A stretch of DNA of 63,992 bases, filler included, from Acidimicrobiia bacterium (GCA_046759765.1; 11 parts of 11 records of this genome joined end to end with filler, not necessarily neighbours in it); one strand, 5' to 3'; positions 3,029 through 61,658 are shown, numbered from the whole stretch's first letter. Translations and numbers: made by a program. The notes: generated from the sequence alone by a model not told the origin.

Positions 3029-3358
3029 ATGACGGCAACAAACCGACTGGTCAACCTCTTCCTTCGCAAGTCCTTTACAGGACGGTTCTCCCGAAAGCCC
3101 TGTTCTCATCTGGACATGATTCGGGACGTGGAACCTGCTTCCGACGTCTGCGATCAGTGTGTGGAATTGGGAGAACGGTGGCCGGCACTACGAATGTGTC
3201 TGATCTGCGGTCACGTCGGCTGCTGCGAAGACGCGAGGTACCAGCACGCCCTCCGCCACTTCGACGAAACCGGCCACCCTCTCGTCAAGCCCCATCTCGA
3301 GCGGGGAATGCGCTGGATCTGGTGCTACGTGGACGAGGCGCTCCTGGATCCGATTTGA
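3029..3358 (+). CDS. UBP-type zinc finger protein
   Basis: CSH...CDQC...LRMCLICGHVGCC...HALRHF...GHP...WCYVD; ATG at 3029. Confidence 0.9.
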   Translation: MTATNRLVNLFLRKSFTGRFSRKPCSHLDMIRDVEPASDVCDQCVELGERWPALRMCLICGHVGCCEDARYQHALRHFDETGHPLVKPHLERGMRWIWCYVDEALLDPI

Positions 3359-3391
3359 AGCGCGCTCTCAGGCGATGCTTACAGTGCGTAC

Positions 3392-3841
3392 ATGTCCGCC
3401 CTTCCGTCCGACCGTCAAGAGGCGCTTCTCGCACTTCATGACCGGCTCGCCGGCTCTGGTGTTCGCTATCAGCTGGGCGGGAGCGCCATGCTCGCGCTGC
3501 GAGGTATCCCCGTCGATATTCACGACCTTGACCTCGTGTTCCCGGTTTCGGCGCGCGACTTGGTTGCCGTCGCGCTAGCCGATTGGTGGGAAGGGTTCAC
3601 CACTATTGATCACCCGATCTTCTCGAGCGACTGGTACGCACGAGTCAAGGTCGACGACGTGCCGGTGGACCTGGTCGGCGGATTCAAGATCAAGGGCGAG
3701 GAGCCCCTGCCCTTTCGAGACGACGAGGCCGTGCGGGTCGCCGGCACCGAGATTCCTCTCGCTCCCGTCGACGTGTGGATTCGCATCTACCAGAAATACG
3801 ACCGCGCCAAAGCTGAGCTGCTCGCACAACTCCTGCGATAG
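3392..3841 (+). CDS. Nucleotidyltransferase-fold protein
   Basis: GGSAML...DIHDLDL (GS + DxD) pol-beta NTase motif. Confidence 0.65.
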   Translation: MSALPSDRQEALLALHDRLAGSGVRYQLGGSAMLALRGIPVDIHDLDLVFPVSARDLVAVALADWWEGFTTIDHPIFSSDWYARVKVDDVPVDLVGGFKIKGEEPLPFRDDEAVRVAGTEIPLAPVDVWIRIYQKYDRAKAELLAQLLR

Positions 3842-3847
3842 AGAGGC

Positions 3848-4564
3848 TCAGTGAGGCGGTTCGGCAGTGACATCGTCCAGCCTCTTCCGTCTGAGGTCGG
3901 GCACAACGCAGTCCTCCGCTGGGTAGCCAATAGGGAACAAGACGAACGGCCGCTCGTTGGGTGGGCGGTTCAGGATTCGGGACAAGAAAGCCATAGGGCT
4001 GGGAGTGTGTGTCAGTGTCGCCAAGCCCATGTGATGGAGTGCGGCGATGAAGAGACCACAGGCGATCCCGACGCTCTCCTTTACGTACCAGTTGTGGTAG
4101 CGCTCGCCGTCCTTACGGAGCCCATACCGCTGCTCGAAGACAACCACGATCCAGGGAGCTATGTCGAGATACGGCTTTCGCCAGCCGGTGCCGAGGGGAG
4201 CTACTGCCTCCCGCCAATCCGACGGCATCCGGCCGCCTTCGTAGTTCTCCCTTTCCTCTTCCTCGGCCGCGACCCGGATCTGATGTTTCGTCGCGGAGTC
4301 GCCCACCACCACGAATGTCCAGGGCTGGCGATGCGCTCCCGAGGGTGCCGTTGAGGCGGTCATGATGGCGTGGTCGATCAGCTCTCTGGGCACGGGGTCG
4401 GAGGAGAAGAACCGGACGCTGCGGCGACGGTCCATCTCCTCGTAGAAGTCACGGGCTCGTCCCAGCATCGCCGGGACGGGCAGCCTCTCCGCTGAGTACG
4501 GAATGAACCCATTTTCTGCCCCGGTCTTTTCCGATCCTTCGGCCACATCGAACCTCCGCGCCAA
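3848..4564 (-). CDS. Nitroreductase family, iodotyrosine deiodinase (IYD)-like
   Basis: RRRSVRFF, TAPSGAHRQPW, EEEERENY lid, KPYL, YVKESVGIA, LTHTP, DLRRK. Confidence 0.8.
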   Translation of the reverse strand: MARRFDVAEGSEKTGAENGFIPYSAERLPVPAMLGRARDFYEEMDRRRSVRFFSSDPVPRELIDHAIMTASTAPSGAHRQPWTFVVVGDSATKHQIRVAAEEEERENYEGGRMPSDWREAVAPLGTGWRKPYLDIAPWIVVVFEQRYGLRKDGERYHNWYVKESVGIACGLFIAALHHMGLATLTHTPSPMAFLSRILNRPPNERPFVLFPIGYPAEDCVVPDLRRKRLDDVTAEPPH

Positions 4565-6538: not shown

Positions 6539-6638
6539 NNNNNNNNNNNNNNNNNNNNNNNNNNNNNNNNNNNNNNNNNNNNTTAATTAATTAANNNNNN
6601 NNNNNNNNNNNNNNNNNNNNNNNNNNNNNNNNNNNNNN
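6539..6638. other. Artificial contig linker (44N-TTAATTAATTAA-44N); same linker at 13121-13220, 19286-19385, 25437-25536, 31585-31684, 37687-37786, 43677-43776, 49656-49755, 55615-55714, 61559-61658
   Basis: Identical 100-nt spacer with stops in all six frames; contig lengths decrease steadily (6482, 6065, 6051, 6048, 6002, 5890, 5879, 5859, 5844). Confidence 0.98.
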
Positions 6639-38087: not shown

Positions 38088-38873
38088 ATGAGACCTATAT
38101 GGAAGGGCGCCGTCAGCTTTGGCCTGGTCACGATCCCGGTTGCCCTGTACACCGCCACCGAGGACCGCAAGCCCAAATTCCGCCTGCTTAGGGGCTCTGA
38201 CCACACCCCCGTTCGCTACAAGCGGGTCAGCGAGGCGGACGGTGAGGAGGTGGCCTGGGAGGACATGGTCCGCGGCTACGAGTTCGAGAAAGGCCGGTAT
38301 GTGGTGTTCACGGATGACGAGCTGAGCGCCGCCAACGCCAAGGGGACGGCCAAGCTGGTCGACGTCGTGCAGTTCGTCGATGAGTCGGAGATAGACCCTC
38401 TCTACTACCGCAAGTCCTACTACCTGGCCCCGGAGAAGACCGGGGTCAAGGCCTACCGGATCCTGTCCGAGGCGCTCAAGGACAAGGGACGGGTCGGCAT
38501 CGCCCGGGTGGCGCTGCGCGAAAGACAGCACCTGGCCACCCTGCGGACCGCCGACGGGCTCCTGGTCCTCGAGACGATGCATTGGCCGGACGAGCTCCGG
38601 GAAGCCTCGTTTGAGGAGCTCGACGAGGAGATCGAGGTACGAGACGAGGAAGTCGAGATGGCCGAGATGATCATCGACAACCTCACCTCGCCTTTCGACG
38701 CAGACGAGTGGCACGACGAGACCCGAGAGAACATCGAGGAGCTGGCTCGCAAGAAGATCGACGGCGAGGAGATCGTGGCGCCGGAGATGCCTGAGCCGAC
38801 CAAGGTGGTCGACCTGCTCGAGGCTCTCAAGGCCTCCGTGGAAGCCACCAAGGCCAAGCGCGAGGCGAGCTAA
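38088..38873 (+). CDS. ku: Non-homologous end-joining protein Ku
   Basis: MRPIWKGAVSFGLVTIPVALY, VRGYE, YYLAP, TMHWPDELR, VVDLLEALKAS. Confidence 0.95.
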   Translation: MRPIWKGAVSFGLVTIPVALYTATEDRKPKFRLLRGSDHTPVRYKRVSEADGEEVAWEDMVRGYEFEKGRYVVFTDDELSAANAKGTAKLVDVVQFVDESEIDPLYYRKSYYLAPEKTGVKAYRILSEALKDKGRVGIARVALRERQHLATLRTADGLLVLETMHWPDELREASFEELDEEIEVRDEEVEMAEMIIDNLTSPFDADEWHDETRENIEELARKKIDGEEIVAPEMPEPTKVVDLLEALKASVEATKAKREAS

Positions 38874-38874
38874 C

Positions 38875-39237
38875 TCAGCTGGGCCGCGGTGGCGGCGGCG
38901 CCGGCGGACCCGCCCGAGGCCGAGGCGCCGGAGGCGCCTCCTCCCCCGTTAGCAGTCCGTAGAGCGAGTCGAGCGCGTTCGTAATCCGGGGATCGGGCAC
39001 CTCGTAGTAAGCCCTGGTCCCGCTTCGCCGCACCGTGACCATCCTCTTGGACCGCAACACGCCGAGATGGTGCGACACGCTGGGCTGGGTAGCACCGATC
39101 AGCTCAGCAAGGTCTCCGACCGAGTGTTCGCCCTCCCGTAGCGCGGCCAGCAGCCTCACCCGCTTGGGATCGGCCAGGCCACCGCAGATCGCAGCCAGCT
39201 CTTCGGCATGCGCAGAGCCAGCGAGAGTCCACGTCAT
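38875..39237 (-). CDS. ArsR/SmtB family transcriptional regulator
   Basis: LADPKRVRLL...SVGDLA...QPSVSHHLGVLR. Confidence 0.9.
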   Translation of the reverse strand: MTWTLAGSAHAEELAAICGGLADPKRVRLLAALREGEHSVGDLAELIGATQPSVSHHLGVLRSKRMVTVRRSGTRAYYEVPDPRITNALDSLYGLLTGEEAPPAPRPRAGPPAPPPPRPS

Positions 39238-39252
39238 TCCCTCAGTCTATAT

Positions 39253-40227
39253 CTACGTAGCTAGATGTTCCTGTTCCTCGTCCGGGCCCTCTGCCGCCCA
39301 GGTGACGTCTTCGAGCGGGTCCAGCGTGAAGCCCTTGAATGACGGCGCCCGCAGCCTCCCCGCTTTTGTCCACTGCTTGAACTCGACATCGGCGACGAGG
39401 CTCGGTGTCACCCAGGTCGCCTGGGGCGGAAGCTCCTCAGGAGCTAGAAATGGCGACGTGGCTGTCTCCAGCTGATCGAGCGTCTGGCGGATCGCTCGCA
39501 GCGAGGCGTTGTCGAAGCCGGTGCCCACCGATCCGATCCAGCGCAGCGTGTCTCCCACCCAGAGGCCAAGCAGGAGCGAGCTGAACGTCGTCGTCCGGCC
39601 CCCTTCGCCGGGGAGGAATCCGCCCACCACCGCCTTGACCCGCTGGACGGCGGCGACCTTGCGCCAATCCGAGGATCTCACGCCTGGCCGATAGGCCGAG
39701 CCGAGGCGCTTTCCGACCATGCCCTCCAGCCGGCGTTCCTTTACCGCGTCGAAAAGGGCTTCTCCGTCAGTCGCGACGCGGTCGGATCGGATCAGCGTTT
39801 CGGGCAGGTCCAGCGAGTCGAGCCGCTCGAGGCGAGTCTCCAATGGCTTTCTCGTCAAGTCCTCGTCGTCGAAGAGCAGGTCGAAAGCGACCATCGACAC
39901 CGAGACCGAGCGGGCGGCGTCGGCCACTCGACGCTCGCCGGTGAGGTTCATCCGGGACTGGAGCAGCTCGAAGGAGGGCCGACCTTCCGGATCGAAGGCC
40001 ACGATCTCGCCGTCGAGAATCGCAGGCCGCGCCAACCTGACCAAGCTGACCTCCGGATAGACCTCGGTCACATCCCGGCCTCGCCGACTGCGCAGCTCGA
40101 CCTCGGATCCATCCCAGAACAGCAGAACACGGACGCCGTCCCATTTGACCTCGAACCACCACTCGGGATCGGTGAAGGGACGCGGCCAGCGGGTGGCCAG
40201 CATTGGCTCGTAGCGAGGTAGCTTCAC
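39253..40227 (-). CDS. ligD: ATP-dependent DNA ligase (stand-alone LigD-type ligase domain)
   Basis: PMLA, EVKWDG (adenylation Lys), LDGEIV, FDLL, EGMVGK, GSVGTGF, LRAPSFKG. Confidence 0.85.
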   Translation of the reverse strand: MKLPRYEPMLATRWPRPFTDPEWWFEVKWDGVRVLLFWDGSEVELRSRRGRDVTEVYPEVSLVRLARPAILDGEIVAFDPEGRPSFELLQSRMNLTGERRVADAARSVSVSMVAFDLLFDDEDLTRKPLETRLERLDSLDLPETLIRSDRVATDGEALFDAVKERRLEGMVGKRLGSAYRPGVRSSDWRKVAAVQRVKAVVGGFLPGEGGRTTTFSSLLLGLWVGDTLRWIGSVGTGFDNASLRAIRQTLDQLETATSPFLAPEELPPQATWVTPSLVADVEFKQWTKAGRLRAPSFKGFTLDPLEDVTWAAEGPDEEQEHLAT

Positions 40228-40830: not shown

Positions 40831-41100
40831 TTGTTGACCGTAACCACTGACTGGCGCGAGGTCGCGGCCTGCCGCGATTCGGAGCCGGAGCTGTTCTTTC
40901 CCATTGGCACAACGGGTCTGGCGCTGCGACACATCGCAGAAGCCAAGGCCATCTGTGCCGAATGCACAGTGCGCGAGGAGTGCCTGCAGTATGCCTTCGA
41001 GGCCAACCAGGAGGCCGGTGTCTGGGGCGGATATGCCGAAGATGAACGCCGGCGACTGCGCAAGCGCTGGCTGGCCGAACGACGGCGCCGCGCCAGCTAG
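40831..41100 (+). CDS. whiB: WhiB family Fe-S transcriptional regulator (WhiB1-like)
   Basis: DWREVAACRDSEPELFFPIG...ICAECTVREECL...GVWGG. Confidence 0.93.
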   Translation: MLTVTTDWREVAACRDSEPELFFPIGTTGLALRHIAEAKAICAECTVREECLQYAFEANQEAGVWGGYAEDERRRLRKRWLAERRRRAS

Positions 41101-55482: not shown

Positions 55483-55714
55483 ACGTCCGGACTGATTGAG
55501 ACTCTCCGAGGACGTACCCAGGAGCTCGGGATCGGTGCCTGCACTCCAAGTGACCCGACCGGTCGTTTGATTCCGTGCGCCCTCTGACCGCGTCTGTCCC
55601 ACCAAAGCTCCGGCNNNNNNNNNNNNNNNNNNNNNNNNNNNNNNNNNNNNNNNNNNNNTTAATTAATTAANNNNNNNNNNNNNNNNNNNNNNNNNNNNNN
55701 NNNNNNNNNNNNNN

Positions 55715-56357
55715 AAGCCCGCACCGAGCCGTCCGAGCTGCGCTGGAGTCCGACCACCGTCTTGGTCACCAGCTCGGCCAAGTCGTCGAGGTCGCTTGTC
55801 GTTCCGGCCTGTGCGGATGGCTCTGCTTCCTCCGCCGGCTGGGAGTCACGGCTACCCGCTGACCTTGCGGCCACCTCAACGCCCTCCAGCCGCTCGTAGA
55901 AGAGGAACTCGTCGCAGGCCGGCGGCAGCAGCGGCGAAGTCGACTCCTTGATGCCCACTCCGATGACTCGCTTGTTCAGCTCGCGGAGCTTGTGCACCAG
56001 CGGGGTGAAGTCGCTGTCACCGCTACAGATGACGAACGTCGTCACGTAGTCGCGCTCGAATGCCAGCTCGAGGGCATCAACCGCCAGCTTGATATCGGCG
56101 GCGTTCTTACGTGAGGTCCCCATCCGCTGAGGGATCTCGATCAGCTCGACGTGACCGCGGGTGAGCATGCGGCGGTCGTCCTCGAACAACGACCAGTCCG
56201 CGTAAGCCCGCCGAGCGACCACCCGACCTCGCTCTGCCAAGGCGTCGCTGATCGGCTGGAGGTCGAACTTGGCTCCCCCCAAGCTTTCCCTGGCTCCTAT
56301 TGCGAGGTTCTCGTAGTCGAGAAAGACGGCGATCCGGTCTTCCTGCCCCGTGGTCAT
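55715..56357 (-). CDS. NYN (LabA/DUF88 PIN-like) domain protein (3' truncated)
   Basis: IAVFLDYEN, RAYADW, KNAADIKLAVD, SGDSDFTPL, ACDEF. Confidence 0.92.
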
Positions 56358-56454
56358 CTGGTCAGCGTAACCAGAGCCGGACCGATCCATTCCGGGGACG
56401 CGTTCGTGTCTCCCCAGAAGAAGAGCAGGCACCAAGCCCACCCCAACCGAGTGG

Positions 56455-56505
56455 GCGACACCCCGCTGCGCCAAATTCCTGAACCTGCACCTGGACGAAG
56501 GAAGG
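56455..56505 (+). pseudogene. Degenerate remnant of the same anti-sigma-like gene 3' end
   Basis: Encodes ATPRCAKFLNLHLDE vs ATPRCAEFVQLHLDE at about 53648; 1-nt deletion at the Trp codon. Confidence 0.65.
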
Positions 56506-56560
56506 TCCTCACGCTAGGCGCAGGGCCCTTCGCCAAGAAACACTTGTGGCTCATGAACTG

Positions 56561-56588
56561 GTAGCGGATATGTGCCGATATGGGCGGC
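56561..56588 (+). repeat. dif-like 11-6-11 site, copy 1
   Basis: GTAGCGGATAT-GTGCCG-ATATGGGCGGC. Confidence 0.8.
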
Positions 56589-56852
56589 CTGGATGACAGT
56601 GCGCGGATCATCCTTCGCAAGGTCCAATATCCGGTGTTCCGCGTTCAGCGGCTCGAACGGATAGTCAGCGGGATCCGATAAAGTGGGTGTCGAAACAGGA
56701 ACCACAGCCTCCAACCTGAGACGGGGCTGGGTTCCTCTTTCAAGTCTCTGGGTGGTGTCATTCTCATGTCCTCTGGGGGAGCGCATTTCGATGACCCTGG
56801 TCAATGACGCGCATCGCGAGCCAGGCCAACCCGTCAGCCTCATCAGGCCGAC

Positions 56853-57779
56853 GTGCTGACCGACGACCGCGGTCGCCTTACGACCGACCTCGTGTCGCAA
56901 TACCTCGCGGCGATCGGTGATTACGACCTTCTGACAGCCGAGCAGGAGGTCGAGTTAGCTCAGAAGATCGAGGCGGGGGAGGCGGGGGCGGCGCGACTCG
57001 AGGCGGGCGACTTCAAGGGTAAGAGTTCGGAGATCGAGCTGCGGCGGCGGGTGCGGCAGGGTCTCGAAGCGAAAGACGCCTTCCTCACCGCCAATCTGCG
57101 GCTGGTTGTGTCCAACGCCCGCCGCTATACGAATGCGCCCGGCATCGACTTCCTCGATTTGATCCAAGAAGGCAACGTGGGTCTGATCCGCGCCGTGGAG
57201 AAGTTCGACTGGCGGAAGGGCTTCAAGTTCTCCACCTACGCGACCTGGTGGATCAAGCAGGCGATCACCCGGGCGATCGCTGACAAATCGCGCACGGTCC
57301 GTATACCGGTCCATCTGCACGACACGCTCGCCGCGGTCCGAGCCGCCCAGGCGAGCCTGAAGGCGGAGCTGGGCCGCGACCCCAGGCCATACGAGATAGC
57401 CGATGAGGCCGGTGTCACCGTCGACAAGGTCGAGCTGGCCCTCGGCGTCGTCGACACGATCTCCCTCGAGCATCCCGTTGGCGATGACGGCACACAGCTC
57501 GGTGACTTCATCGAGGACGAGAACGCCACCGACCCGGCACAGATCACGCAGAGGCTGGACATCGCCAATATGCTGCGCGTGTCGATCGAGCGCCTCCCCC
57601 ACCGGGAGGGGAGAATCCTTGCCCTCCGCTACGGCTTCTACGACGGAGTACCCCGGACGCTCGAGGAGATCGGGGAGGAGTACAACCTGACCCGCGAGCG
57701 GATCCGGCAGCTCCAGAAGCTGGCACTGTGCCGGCTCCGGCACCCCTCCTTCGGCATCCGCGAGCAGGACCTCGTCTGA
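56853..57779 (+). CDS. Sigma-70 factor, RpoD/SigB-like without region 1.1 (group 2-like)
   Basis: [56 protein letters not shown]. Confidence 0.93.
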
Positions 57780-57857
57780 CAGAAAGGCCGCACCCGGACG
57801 GGACGAAGCCCGACACAGGTGGTCGGGAGCAGGTCTGCGAACCTGCCTCTCGGCGGT

Positions 57858-58364
57858 CTAGACCGGAGTTCCGCACCACAGAACAAGACTTTGTGCGCTG
57901 GCTTCGTGTGTCGGGTGACCCGCCCGTATCCGGCCAAGATGAGTGTGCCTCCGCGGTTGCGTGAAGCGTCCGAGACGGCGTTCAGACCGCGTCAGGAAGG
58001 CTGACGGAGGAACCACTACAAGTCCTGGTCGGTCGAGCATGTCAGCGCAAGGAGGCCGGTAGTCAGACCAGACGCGGTGGACCACAACAGCGTCTGGCAC
58101 CTCGGTTACCAGGCAAGGCGCTCCATATGTGGACGGACAATCGGCCATGGTCATTGCAGGGCAGGACCCGACCGTGAATCCTGCCTCATCCAGAGATCGG
58201 CGCATCCGGTCGAGGATGACATCGGGAGACGGTCCTACTAACAGAACGGTGCTCTCAGGTCCCTCGCAGCAGGGAATCAGCGTCTCACTCTTGGGTATGG
58301 CACCGCTGCTTGCCAGGGCCAAAGGTCCTCGAGTCAATGCCAGCGGTACACGCCGATGATCCAT
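57858..58364 (-). CDS. Possible small Cys-rich hypothetical protein (boundaries uncertain)
   Basis: VLLVGP...SLDEAGFTVGSCP....CP......CLV...DAVVV; fills the gap between sigma and tnaA. Confidence 0.3.
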   Translation of the reverse strand: MDHRRVPLALTRGPLALASSGAIPKSETLIPCCEGPESTVLLVGPSPDVILDRMRRSLDEAGFTVGSCPAMTMADCPSTYGAPCLVTEVPDAVVVHRVWSDYRPPCADMLDRPGLVVVPPSAFLTRSERRLGRFTQPRRHTHLGRIRAGHPTHEASAQSLVLWCGTPV

Positions 58365-58476
58365 TCAGCCAACAATCCGGTATGCGCGGGCGCTTCTGTT
58401 CCGAAACGGGCGTTGGTCCCTGGTCCGAGTGCGGGTGGCGGGGCACCCTGGTCTCCACCGACGAAGGACGTAATCC

Positions 58477-59859
58477 ATGCAGTTCCAGACCATCATTGAG
58501 CCTTTCCGTATCCACAGCGTTCAGGCCATCAGGTTCCCAAGCGAGGCCAAGCGGGAGGCAGCCCTCGTTCGCGTCGGATACAACCTCTTTGGGCTTCACA
58601 GTGACGAGGTGATCATCGACCTCCTCACCGACTCCGGTACGGGAGCAATGTCATCTCGGCAGTGGGCGGGGATGATGGACGGGGATGAGTCCTACGCCGG
58701 TAGTCGGTCCTTCTACCGGTTCGAGTCTGCGGTAAGGGAGCTGACCGGTCTCCCGGAAGTCATACCGACGCATCAAGGCCGGGCTGCTGAGCGCATTCTC
58801 TTCTCGGAGTCGGTAAGGGACGGAGACGTGGTTCCCAACAACACGCATTTCGACACCACCCGAGCCAACGTGGAGTACCAAGGCGCAGAAGCGCGGGACG
58901 TCCTGATTGCCGAAGGCCTAGAGCCCGCATCTGGGCATCCCTTCAAAGGAAATGTCGACATCGCAGCCCTGGAGGCACTCATCAGCGAAGTCGGTTCGGA
59001 GAGAATTCCAATGATGATGGTCACGGTCACCAACAACTCCGGAGGTGGTCAGCCCGTATCGATGGCCAATCTGCGAGCAGTCCGCGCGGTCTGTGACCGC
59101 TACGGTGTCCCGCTGTTCCTAGACGCGTGCCGATTTGCCGAGAATGCCTACTTCGTCAAGCTCCGCGAGGACGGTTACTCCGATCGCTCTCCGGCGCAGA
59201 TCGCCGGTGAGATGTTCTCACTCGCTGACGGGTGCACCTTCTCGGCCAAGAAGGACGGTCTGGCCAACATCGGCGGGTTCCTGGCGATGAGAGACCCAGA
59301 CCTGGCGGGTCGATGCCGCAACCTTCTCATCCTCACTGAGGGTTTTCCGACCTACGGCGGCCTCGCCGGCTACGACCTGGAGGCAATCGCCGTCGGCCTG
59401 GAGGAGGTACTTGACGAGGATTACCTGCGGTATCGAATACGCTCCACTGCCTACCTCGTCGAGAAGGTCAACGCCGCTGGTGTGCCCACCGTGCAGCCTC
59501 CAGGCGGCCACGCCGTCTACATCGACGCCAAGGCTCTGCTACCCCATATCCCCCCCCAGCACTACCCAGCCCACTCACTTGCCGTGGAGCTGTACCGGCT
59601 GGGCGGAGTCCGGGCTGTTGAGATCGGATCAGTCATGTTCGGTAAACCACAACCCGACGGCACTGAAATACCCGCGGCCATGGAGCTAGTCCGGCTTGCC
59701 ATACCTCGCCGCACCTACACCCAGAGCCACATCGACTTTGTCGCTGACGTGGTGGCCGAAGCTGCCAAACAGGCCGACACCATCGGCGGTTACAGGATCG
59801 TTGAACAGGCACCCTGGCTCAGGCACTTCACCGCAAGATTCGCGCCAGCTTCTACATGA
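58477..59859 (+). CDS. tnaA: Tryptophanase (tryptophan indole-lyase)
   Basis: EPFRI, DLLTDSGT, GDESYAGS, THQGRAAE, SAKKDG (PLP Lys); GVRAVEIG and LRHFTARF favour tryptophanase over tyrosine phenol-lyase. Confidence 0.88.
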   Translation: MQFQTIIEPFRIHSVQAIRFPSEAKREAALVRVGYNLFGLHSDEVIIDLLTDSGTGAMSSRQWAGMMDGDESYAGSRSFYRFESAVRELTGLPEVIPTHQGRAAERILFSESVRDGDVVPNNTHFDTTRANVEYQGAEARDVLIAEGLEPASGHPFKGNVDIAALEALISEVGSERIPMMMVTVTNNSGGGQPVSMANLRAVRAVCDRYGVPLFLDACRFAENAYFVKLREDGYSDRSPAQIAGEMFSLADGCTFSAKKDGLANIGGFLAMRDPDLAGRCRNLLILTEGFPTYGGLAGYDLEAIAVGLEEVLDEDYLRYRIRSTAYLVEKVNAAGVPTVQPPGGHAVYIDAKALLPHIPPQHYPAHSLAVELYRLGGVRAVEIGSVMFGKPQPDGTEIPAAMELVRLAIPRRTYTQSHIDFVADVVAEAAKQADTIGGYRIVEQAPWLRHFTARFAPAST

Positions 59860-59876
59860 CCGTCCACTCCGGGTGG

Positions 59877-59904
59877 CTAGCGCATATGTGCCGATATGGG
59901 CGGG
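59877..59904 (+). repeat. dif-like 11-6-11 site, copy 2
   Basis: CTAGCGCATAT-GTGCCG-ATATGGGCGGG, 17 nt after the tnaA stop. Confidence 0.8.
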
Positions 59905-60030
59905 TGGGCATTAGCCGACCGACCATGTCAGGTCAGCGGTCTATCGCCCAGCCGGTCGGCTCTCAGCCCCGAGAGACGTATGAGCAGCGAATGGCCAGCT
60001 CAAGGTAGGAGGGACAGAAACGACCGACCG

Positions 60031-60396
60031 TCAGTCGCTGGTCTCGTCGGACTCTGATTCGCTCCCGGCATCCGAACCTGATTCGCTGGCGGCGTCTAGA
60101 TGATCTGTGTCACTAACAGCGGTATCAGGGAATGAACGGGTCTCAGCCGGCGCGCTGGCTTCGGTCGTCTTGTCTCGGAGATCGTGAGCCACCGTGCGAT
60201 CCGTTCCGGCTTCCGGCATGACAATCCAGAGAACGATGTAGACGATCACACCGAGGCCGCCGAAGAAGATGGACAGCGCCCATATGACCCTCACGATCGT
60301 GCGGTTGATACCGAAGAAATCGGCAACTCCCGACGCGACACCAGCGATGACCTTGTCGTTAGGGTTACGTTCGAGCCGGCGGGCTTGCTCGCTCAT
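60031..60396 (-). CDS. PspC domain protein
   Basis: RLERNPNDKVIAGVASGVADFFGI...VYIVLWIVMP; acidic tail. Confidence 0.92.
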   Translation of the reverse strand: MSEQARRLERNPNDKVIAGVASGVADFFGINRTIVRVIWALSIFFGGLGVIVYIVLWIVMPEAGTDRTVAHDLRDKTTEASAPAETRSFPDTAVSDTDHLDAASESGSDAGSESESDETSD

Positions 60397-60549
60397 GGGC
60401 TACCCCCCTCTCTGCGGCCAGTGGACACAGATTGCGTCCGGAACGACCCTAACCATCACTACACCCGCTCGCCTTTCGTTCGGGGTCCAAATAGGCGTGG
60501 GTCCTGGTCCCGCTCCTTCGTTCGGCGATCCGCATGTGGCGCACCACAG

Positions 60550-60577
60550 GTCGCGCATATGTGCCGATATGGGCGGG
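60550..60577 (+). repeat. dif-like 11-6-11 site, copy 3
   Basis: GTCGCGCATAT-GTGCCG-ATATGGGCGGG. Confidence 0.8.
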
Positions 60578-60696
60578 TACGAGCAGCCGGAATTCTGGAA
60601 TCGGTGAGCCGCTGAGGCTGGCACTGCTTTCTTTCTGTGGGTTCAGGTGTCGTTGCTCACTCTCGTGCGATTTGTACGTGCGATGATGGCCTCACT

Positions 60697-61558
60697 GTGA
60701 CAGCGGCGATTCCGGAGCGAGAAACCCGCTACGTCAAGACCGACGGGGGGTATGTCGGCTATCAGGTATTTGGTTCCGGCCCGCTGGATCTGCTCTTCAT
60801 CCAGAACTGGTCACAGAACCTCGACGTGATGTGGCAGGAGCCTTCTCTCGCTCGCTACTTGGAGCGACTGGCCTGGTTTGCCCGCGTCATCTGTTTTAAC
60901 AACCGCGGTTCTGGTGTTTCGGACCCGCTGCCGATGTCGGCAGCGGCCATTCCCAGTCTGGACGCTTGGATGGACGACGTTCGAGCCGTGTTGGATGCTG
61001 CTGGTGCGGGCCATGCTGCGATCCTGGGAGATACCGAGGGCGGGCCGGTGGCCGTTCTCTTTGCTGCCACTTTCCCCGAGCGTGTCTCGTCGCTCGTGCT
61101 GGTGAACTCGTTCGCACGCTGGAAACCGGATGACTATTCGATCGGGATGCCACCCGATGCGTACACCAAGCTGATCGACCTCTATGAGGGTTATTGGGGC
61201 CAGGACGCCGACATGCTGGCGCTCACTGCCCCGAGCGTGATGGCGGATGCACGATTTCGCTCCTGGTTCACGACATATCAGCGTCTCTCCATACCTCCGG
61301 GATACGCCACCGCTTTCTACCGATGGGTCACGGGTCTCGACGTGCGACACGTGCCGGCCAGCGTCAGAACGCCGACCCTTGTGATCCACCGCTCAGGGAA
61401 CCTCCACCATCGGGTGGCGTTCGGTCGCTACCTGGCGGAACAGATCGCAAGCTCCCAATATGTGGAACTCGACGGTGCCGACTCCTATCCGTTCCATGCG
61501 GGTGACTTCTCGGAACTGCTCGACAAGGTCGAAGAGTTCCTCACCGGCGAACCCCAGC
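60697..61558 (+). CDS. Alpha/beta hydrolase fold protein (LipJ-like N-terminal domain; 3' truncated)
   Basis: ETRYV...GYQVFGSGPLDL, RGSGVSDP, GDTEGG, FAATFPERV, PTLVIHR, EEFLTG. Confidence 0.85.
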
Positions 61559-61658
61559 NNNNNNNNNNNNNNNNNNNNNNNNNNNNNNNNNNNNNNNNNN
61601 NNTTAATTAATTAANNNNNNNNNNNNNNNNNNNNNNNNNNNNNNNNNNNNNNNNNNNN

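Follow-up and report, generated by a model that had tools for sequence, protein, structure and literature searches.

Co-oriented 28-bp sites flanking gene modules in Acidimicrobiia-like Actinomycetota: candidate core sites of a site-specific recombinase

The stretch of DNA analysed in this work (63,992 nucleotides, filler included, hereafter the window) derives from an Acidimicrobiia bacterium (GCA_046759765.1) and carries, on one of its contigs, three short, directly repeated sites of 28 bp that separate small groups of genes. These sites belong to a large family present in metagenome-assembled genomes (MAGs), whose members lie between genes, share one orientation with their neighbours and coincide with the points at which the homology between related contigs breaks off. 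The sites are probably the core sites of a putative site-specific recombinase that would be encoded elsewhere in the genome and would shuffle gene modules in trans.

The window contains exactly three copies of the 20-mer ATATGTGCCGATATGGGCGG, the core of the sites (at positions 56568, 59884 and 60557), always on the + strand, and none of 100 dinucleotide-preserving shuffles contained a match to it, even when up to three mismatches were allowed. Site 1 (56561-56588, + strand, profile E = 3.5e-9) reads GGTAGCGG followed by ATATGTGCCGATATGGGCGG; site 2 (59877-59904, + strand, E = 6.5e-11) has the left arm found in the majority of the family, CTAGCGC, and the right extension GGGT; site 3 (60550-60577, + strand, E = 1.6e-11) has the left arm GTCGCGC. 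All three are of the simple type, referred to as the A site. The other ten contigs of the window (58 kb) contain no further copy with three or fewer mismatches, nor any that is recognized by a profile of 175 family members, the next best match having E = 2.3; the probability that three random sites share one of 11 similar contigs is, by our own arithmetic, approximately 1/121. A preliminary description of this DNA had reported three co-oriented 28-bp sites starting at 56561, 59877 and 60550, without a copy in the other ten contigs, and had parsed each of them into two 11-bp arms with imperfect dyad symmetry around a 6-bp spacer. These frames do contain the 20-mer cores, the spacings of 3316 and 673 bp are right, the mismatch search and the profile agree on the other ten contigs, and the 11-6-11 parse is the one that can be read from both the sequence and the consensus of the family.

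The extent of the family was assessed by one exact-match scan of public species-representative genomes with the 18-nt core, so that all the family counts are lower bounds (at least 143 stretches were listed). After the removal of duplicates, at least 146 exact sites were retrieved in at least 111 contigs. The family proper consists of at least 133 exact sites in at least 98 contigs belonging to at least 27 MAGs, with a GC content of about 0.57-0.65 (mostly about 60-63%), and at least 48 near-exact copies, with one to three mismatches, are present in the same loci, the chance expectation being about 0.2 according to our estimate. The 13 other matches among those listed are single, fall in unrelated and mostly low-GC taxa, are devoid of the flanking consensus and correspond, again by our estimate, to about the number that an 18-mer would yield by chance in so large a collection. 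For 49 of the loci listed, the sequence analysed spans about 600 bp. Eighteen of the 27 MAGs among the matches listed are labelled Acidimicrobiia, Actinomycetota or Actinomycetes. The searchable literature, passages of a 2026 Actinomarina preprint included, contains in its available parts neither the site strings nor a description of such arrays; thus, the site family and its arrays are apparently undescribed, and the earlier proposal of an undescribed system in an actinobacterium is supported by a family found mostly in MAGs of the Acidimicrobiia and Actinomycetota. Segments with 99-100% identity were found in differently labelled bins, so that some of the labels must be wrong, probably through the mis-binning of short contigs. 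As a side observation, CAXMOL010000093.1 and CAXMPS010000300.1 share 4071 bp at 99.9% identity, and CAXMPK010000024.1 and CAXMPS010000325.1 share 1106 bp at 99.4%; near-identical site-bearing segments occur in bins labelled Kiloniellaceae, Gammaproteobacteria and Acidimicrobiia, all with a GC content of about 61%.

In the 128 distinct contexts among the matches listed, conservation spans only positions -10 to +21, with the consensus CAG[G/C]TAGCGC-ATATGTGCCGATATGGGC-GGGT, and the flanks beyond this span are unrelated: in 8901 of the 8911 site pairs (among the matches listed) neither flank is in common, in agreement with the unrelated flanks already reported for the three sites of the window. 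Two types of arm, cAGGTAGCGCATAT and CCGCCCATAT, are used, and the mixed as well as both homotypic combinations (CCGCCC.../...GGGCGG and TAGCGC.../...GCGCTA) have been observed, the arms differing only at positions -2, -5 and -6. The minimal site is GCSCATAT-GTGCCG-ATATGSGC, i.e., two near-identical inverted arms around an invariant, asymmetric 6-bp spacer.

The arrangement of the sites is markedly polar. Adjacent sites are co-oriented in 33 of the 35 pairs among the matches listed (one pair, from the same region in two bins, is counted twice), and 23 of the 25 contigs with at least two exact sites (among the matches listed) carry all of them in one orientation; the spacing of adjacent sites ranges from 358 to 4367 bp, with a median of 1408 bp. 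The orientation of the sites is associated neither with the GC skew, positive in 21 of 40 contig segments (among the matches listed), nor with the coding strand, 23,246 amino acids being encoded on the same strand and 25,768 on the opposite one. When genes were called with a simple caller based on third-position GC, which reproduces the genes of the window, 72 of 80 sites (among the matches listed) turned out to be intergenic. Called genes were present on either side of 42 of the intergenic sites, and these were distributed among convergent (11), divergent (11) and tandem (20) gene pairs, that is, in the random proportion of 1:1:2, and at these 42 sites neither a preference for promoters or gene ends nor a fixed distance to gene starts was detected. 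Five co-oriented sites lie within 4.9 kb on a long-read contig of 423 kb (locus L029), which shows that the arrays are not an artefact of short-read assembly.

The genes located between the sites are diverse, and many of them cannot be annotated: of the open reading frames (ORFs) around the sites, 123 out of 243 (68/125 plus 55/118) had no Pfam match at 1e-5. The domains recognized in the remaining cargo include class III cyclases, methyltransferases, glyoxalases, SRPBCC, DUF998, ABM, AhpC, the serine beta-lactamase fold, pyridoxal phosphate-dependent decarboxylases, MFS/TetR, PIN and TelA, together with a few IS3/IS481 transposases and terminase fragments, and some single sites lie amid housekeeping genes (purE/purK, metK, transketolase). 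Class III adenylate/guanylate cyclase domains were found in eight of 281 locus ORFs (in loci L026, L032, L046, L053, L058, L006, L028 and L033), some of them being paralogous copies in different modules. Locus L040 harbors an IS3-family element (HTH_Tnp_1 plus rve, ORFs 3241-4535, - strand) inserted inside an array; its ALIL frameshift pseudoknot (4141-4257, - strand, 96 bits) was the only match to an Rfam family in ten loci, none being found at the sites themselves. In locus L055, an IS481-type transposase adjoins a site. In locus L056 (CAXMOP010000115.1, 35341-45927, on a 119-kb contig), a lone module of 569 bp with a YjgF/RidA-family gene is enclosed by two sites and sits among housekeeping genes (transketolase, lipoyl synthase); its right flank occurs in another MAG (JAUXLW010000205.1) with another left flank, the next upstream site being about 2.9 kb away.

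The comparison of related contigs revealed that homology ends at the sites. Ten site pairs among the matches listed have a common flank (at least 85% identity): five share both flanks and represent the same locus in two bins, and five share one flank only. In the one-flank pairs, the identity continues through the core and ends at -6/-7 or at +20; a sixth pair of this kind contains an indel. Three different left flanks are found next to one and the same right flank. The loci were also compared all against all with BLAST, and of the 38 alignment ends inspected 20 were uninformative, one of the two sequences ending there; twelve ends fell at a site in both sequences, four at a site in one sequence and two at no site (one of these lying 22 nt from a site). 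Sixteen of the 18 informative homology breakpoints are therefore located at a site, when the bases within 15 nt of a site represent only 4.4%. The earlier reading of the sites as direct-repeat recombination sites delimiting modules is thus sustained by the co-orientation of adjacent sites, by the position of these breakpoints and by a flank with unrelated partners (among the matches listed).

Two junctions fall inside the site. Between CAXMPS010000081 and CAXMPS010000283, homology begins at GCCG-ATATGGGCGG, the left arm being missing in CAXMPS010000081; between CAXMOL010000204 and CAXMPS010000347, it sets in precisely with the right arm, one of the partners carrying an inverted spacer. Breaks of this kind, which leave half a site, point to strand exchange in the spacer at a secondary site rather than to homologous recombination between repeats. 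As for the second junction (CAXMOL010000204.1, about 1125-1165, in the region of locus L033), the right arm and its flank are joined to the exactly inverted spacer and to a degenerate arm, an arrangement not to be expected if intact sites simply undergo excision or inversion. Moreover, a module of 855 bp (95% identity) has different neighbours in two contigs, and four k = 141 contigs stop exactly 117 nt past the core, three more stopping at 113-120 nt; this is where a branch of the assembly graph would be expected if different left flanks meet a common site and right flank. For the three sites of the window itself, neither an alternative junction nor a circle nor an empty site was seen among the loci compared.

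A part of the family has a composite form, in which the A site is preceded by a second motif, the B box (GCGCATA[A/T]-CCGGCA-ATATG[C/G]GC), whose arms are those of A and whose spacer is roughly that of A inverted and shifted by one base. The loci contain at least 55 B boxes, 40 of which lie just upstream of an A site, at an offset of 46 nt in 26 cases (44-47 nt in 32) and of 34-36 nt in seven, and 54 of the 55 are co-oriented with the nearest A site. Fourteen B boxes stand alone, far from any A site, with the same orientation as the nearest one. The linker between B and A is about 20 nt long, rich in C and T, fixed in length and variable in sequence, although one linker variant recurs with small changes, and the whole composite measures about 75 nt. 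In the recombinant pairs the B box and the linker stay with the left flank, which places the crossover in A. The top strand of a 77-nt unit is predicted to form a long hairpin in which B is paired with A, with one bulged G (-18.4 kcal/mol, z = -3.8, a value reached by none of 200 shuffles), and the bottom strand of the composite folds less well (z = -1.65); an example of the composite is found in L078:470-546 (- strand). An 83-nt composite element searched against plasmids gave one weak partial match, in a parB gene (E = 0.2), and none against phages. Most of the A sites in the loci have no B box. The same applies to the window, where no B box was found, either upstream of the three sites or elsewhere, and whose three simple sites fold no better than their shuffles (z = -0.25 to -1.3).

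On the basis of these data, the following scheme may be proposed. The site would consist of two inverted arms of 8-10 bp (GCSCATAT) around GTGCCG, the asymmetric spacer giving it polarity. A circular module inserted at a resident site would generate two co-oriented sites, and recombination between these would remove the module again; repeated rounds might lead both to arrays of co-oriented sites separating accessory modules of one to three genes and to a gene on one side of a site that differs between strains. The B box might represent an accessory or heterospecific site, or the composite of about 75 nt might fold like an integron attC. The recombinase is most likely a tyrosine recombinase whose sites have the geometry of lox/FRT or Xer, since the 10-6-10 geometry and the polar spacer are the hallmark of that family. 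The class of the enzyme, the circular intermediates, an integration going beyond deletion and the role of B are what we infer from the sequences compared, and the mobility of the three sites and two modules of the window would follow from their membership of the family. Recombination-site-delimited modules are a known kind of system, and there is a substantial chance that the one described here is a distinct cassette system. The odds seem evenly balanced as to whether Acidimicrobiia-like Actinomycetota carry a cassette system of their own, analogous to the integron, with an unrelated site sequence and no linked integrase, in which a trans-acting chromosomal recombinase would insert, excise and exchange modules of one to three genes at a 28-bp lox-like core; in such a system, the composite of two heterospecific boxes present on many modules could allow cassette exchange or single-strand folding.

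The preliminary description had called the array integron-like, and this holds as a functional analogy. As in integrons, short co-oriented sites form arrays, the small modules between them carry accessory genes that are very diverse and in many cases defy annotation, and the neighbour across a site differs between strains. The attC site is composed of two simple sites of inverse polarity, with one extra base, the crossover in the 3' simple site and a bulged hairpin; the B-A composite, i.e., a subset of the family, likewise comprises two inverse simple sites, a variable centre and one bulged base. In other respects the two systems differ. No Phage_integrase domain was found in the eight ORFs of the site-bearing contig, in 66 further ORFs of the window or in 281 locus ORFs, whereas intI would be expected by the first cassette; the sites are conserved in sequence and not only in structure; the canonical inverse-core and core motifs are absent from positions -40 to +57 of the 128 contexts (among the matches listed); and most sites, including the three of the window, are simple and single and do not require folding. 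Furthermore, the cargo is encoded in both directions and some modules hold several genes, whereas integron cassettes mostly consist of one promoterless ORF each, all pointing the same way: in the window, module 1 contains two genes, and module 2 contains a gene on the opposite strand. Complete integrons are reported as absent from Actinobacteria in the available text of PMC4889954 and PMC9024848.

The sites were also said to be dif-like, a label that fits as regards the 11-6-11 geometry only; the arms are near-identical to each other, as in lox/FRT. The pdif sites of Acinetobacter typically alternate in orientation, whereas the sites described here are chromosomal and co-oriented, and their near-identical arms (L/R, R'/R, L/L') do not form a fixed pair of one XerC arm and one XerD arm. 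According to the passages available, dif modules have been described for Acinetobacter, and these pdif/Xer-exploiting elements resemble the present ones in having 28-bp sites with two arms and a 6-bp spacer that flank gene modules, in a recombinase that is not next to the modules and in the shuffling of modules between contexts. In the parts of PMC3025954 available, the proposed dif of Frankia alni, which is not the dif of the host itself, matches the site at about 11 of 28 positions by our count, and the dif predicted for Acidimicrobium ferrooxidans in the supplement, likewise not that of the host, is also unlike it; on this comparison with actinobacterial dif sequences, a close mimic of dif was rejected. 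As for lox and FRT, they share with the site the inverted, near-identical arms and a short asymmetric spacer that alone sets the polarity. Variant lox spacers are heterospecific, and the B box would be comparable to them. Unlike the sites described here, of which there are hundreds in arrays with no linked gene, lox and FRT occur once or twice per replicon, beside the gene of their recombinase.

Several observations weigh against a recombinase acting in trans. A Pfam search detected no tyrosine or serine recombinase and no Y1 transposase in the 243 locus ORFs and in 38 extra ones that the gene caller had skipped (98 contigs, about 254 kb), and no recombinase in the 64-kb window (eight ORFs of the contig, as already claimed in the preliminary description, plus 66 further ORFs); the only mobility-type genes among the 281 locus ORFs are IS3/IS481 DDE transposases and terminase fragments. 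With no recombinase gene near the sites, the enzyme is hypothetical; of the earlier idea that the recombinase is encoded elsewhere, the part concerning the absence of a linked gene stands for all the sites examined, and the enzyme itself does not go beyond hypothesis. Nine of the 27 MAGs among the matches listed have other labels (Gammaproteobacteria, Kiloniellales, Gemmatimonadota, Boseongicola). Neither circular module junctions nor empty sites were found among the assembled contigs compared, the scan, keyed to the site, being unable to find empty ones, and the one-sided homology could arise from deletions alone. On contigs of 2-10 kb, GC skew and gene strand provide a weak test of replichore polarity, and the presence of a site was itself the selection criterion of the scan, which bears on any estimate of genome-wide density. 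Lastly, relatives of the six proteins of the window were sought by tblastn near other sites in all loci, with one marginal match only, and the sigma factor and the lyase of module 1 could be ordinary chromosomal genes.

Two further points of this kind, the tetranucleotide GTAG at the edge of the arm and the foldable inverted B-A doublets, recall repetitive extragenic palindromic (REP) elements and their hairpin-forming doublets (REPINs), and introduce the main rival explanation, which we regard as unlikely: a selfish REP/REPIN-like palindrome, spread by a single-copy HUH transposase (of the type of the REP-associated tyrosine transposases, RAYT) or a similar one, in which A would be the REP singlet and B-A the inverted doublet, the rearrangements arising as a by-product when copies are cleaved or recombine with each other. 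REP elements are extragenic palindromic repeats of 20-40 bp in high copy number, with an unpaired GTAG (or CGTC) tag at one end and a cognate RAYT gene that the repeats flank. The family does consist of short, imperfect, extragenic palindromes in many copies; GTAG, which the available passages of PMC3733652 give as a characteristic tag of REPs, occupies positions -7 to -4 in the majority arm class, that is, in 64% of the contexts (T at -6 in 64%, A at -5 in 65%, G at -4 in 86%); the 40 of 55 B boxes at a fixed offset form inverted doublets with the folding energy given above; the recurrent linker variant with its small changes is what a master sequence would leave; and a single-copy enzyme acting in trans would not be linked to the sites. 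Nevertheless, GTAG is absent from the CCGCCC arm class and lies inside the paired arm in the L/L' class, and the single sites, as seen in the window, fold no better than shuffles. Many REP families consist mostly of close units in opposite orientation and are found mainly downstream of genes, as far as the same passages of PMC3733652 go, whereas adjacent A sites are co-oriented in 33 of 35 pairs and divergent starts (11) are as common as convergent ends (11). Moreover, contigs differ by the replacement of whole flanks and not by the presence or absence of the repeat (empty sites being beyond the reach of a site-keyed scan), no Y1 transposase domain is encoded by the 281 locus ORFs, and the three copies of the window are confined to 5.8 kb, the remaining 58 kb being free of them. 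REP-like random orientation, a fixed promoter position and an invariant gene content, which the preliminary description had named as signs that would speak against it, were looked for in the family, and none of them was found.

It is quite improbable that the sites are passive short repeats serving as substrates for homologous or microhomology-mediated deletion, so that modules would be lost and never inserted, with no dedicated enzyme. Nested deletions between direct repeats could produce the five one-sided pairs and the three left partners of one right flank, and composite repeats reach about 75 bp; the identical stretch of the simple sites, on the other hand, does not exceed about 26 bp, a short length for an exchange that depends on RecA. 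Such an explanation also leaves unaccounted for the invariance of a sequence of 22-32 bp across 27 MAGs with different arm classes, the co-orientation, the 855-bp module in two neighbourhoods and the two in-site junctions with half a site, as homologous exchange needs identity on both sides. A role as operator or architectural site for a transcription factor or a nucleoid-associated protein, without any part in DNA rearrangement, appears very improbable. The palindromic 8-6-8 motif and the location of sites 1 and 3 of the window in divergent promoter regions, by stress-type genes (sigma factor, PspC), would suit an operator, but site 2, like 11 of the 42 flanked sites, has a converging gene end on either side, and there is no enrichment and no fixed distance upstream of gene starts; neighbouring sites are strictly co-oriented whatever the direction of the genes, which are functionally unrelated; the homology breakpoints coincide with the sites; and a core of 20-26 bp that does not vary in more than 100 copies would be unusual for an operator.

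As for its composition, the window consists of 11 separate contigs of about 6 kb each, joined end to end by two runs of 44 N flanking the linker TTAATTAATTAA (window 6539-6638 and nine more joins, e.g., 55615-55714 and 61559-61658), so that distances and synteny spanning the joins are meaningless. The three sites are all located on the contig 55715-61558 (5.8 kb). The left neighbour of the array is a gene with a NYN domain (55716-56474, - strand; PF01936, E = 8.9e-34), cut by the contig end, and the right neighbour is an alpha/beta-hydrolase gene (60637-61557, + strand; PF00561, E = 2e-12), also cut by the contig end. Module 1 (56589-59876, 3316 bp from site to site) contains a sigma-70 family gene (56853-57779, + strand; Pfam Sigma70_r1_2/r2/r3/r4), a stretch of about 700 bp without a supported gene (57780-58476) and a gene for a beta-eliminating lyase, similar to tryptophanase (58477-59859, + strand; Pfam Beta_elim_lyase). 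The only long ORF of the 700-bp stretch (57858-58364, - strand, 168 amino acids) has no Pfam match and fails the third-position GC filter; the stretch may correspond to a gene in decay, to non-coding DNA or to a small gene that escaped annotation. Module 2 (59905-60549, 673 bp from site to site) contains a single gene, with a PspC domain (60031-60396, - strand; PF04024, E = 2.3e-23).

Site 1 is flanked by the divergently oriented NYN-domain and sigma-70 genes, in the intergenic region that separates them, and its base at position -1 is G, a position occupied by C in 120 of the 128 distinct contexts of the family (among the matches listed). Site 2 is found 18 bp past the stop codon of the lyase, between the convergent ends of the lyase (stop at 59859) and PspC (stop at 60031) genes, exactly as the preliminary description had placed it. 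Site 3 separates divergent gene starts, that of the PspC gene being 154 bp away and that of the hydrolase gene 60 bp away. No Rfam family was detected on this contig at E <= 1, and a consensus scan gave no promoter-like site and one terminator-like site, unrelated to the three sites and below the mean of the shuffles. The other contigs of the window encode WhiB, DUF3107, DUF2469 and Ku with an ATP-dependent ligase, markers which indicate that the window fits an actinobacterium; in the regions 38088-40227 and 40831-41097, an ArsR-type regulator is enclosed by the two genes for non-homologous end joining, those of Ku and of the ATP-dependent DNA ligase, and a WhiB gene comes next.

If the proposed interpretation is correct, the accretion of genes at short recombination sites would have evolved more than once, the one described here being a third cassette or module system, of unrelated sequence and in a different phylum, and a new recombinase/site pair would be available, with a compact polar core and a natural heterospecific partner box. 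The sites would also explain the short contigs that end at them and their wrong binning, and would mark the regions of MAGs that fragment and are mis-binned. They would offer a handle on the acquisition of accessory genes by uncultured Acidimicrobiia, and a large part of the flexible genome of these lineages, which are abundant in sediments and in the sea, would be due to the system.

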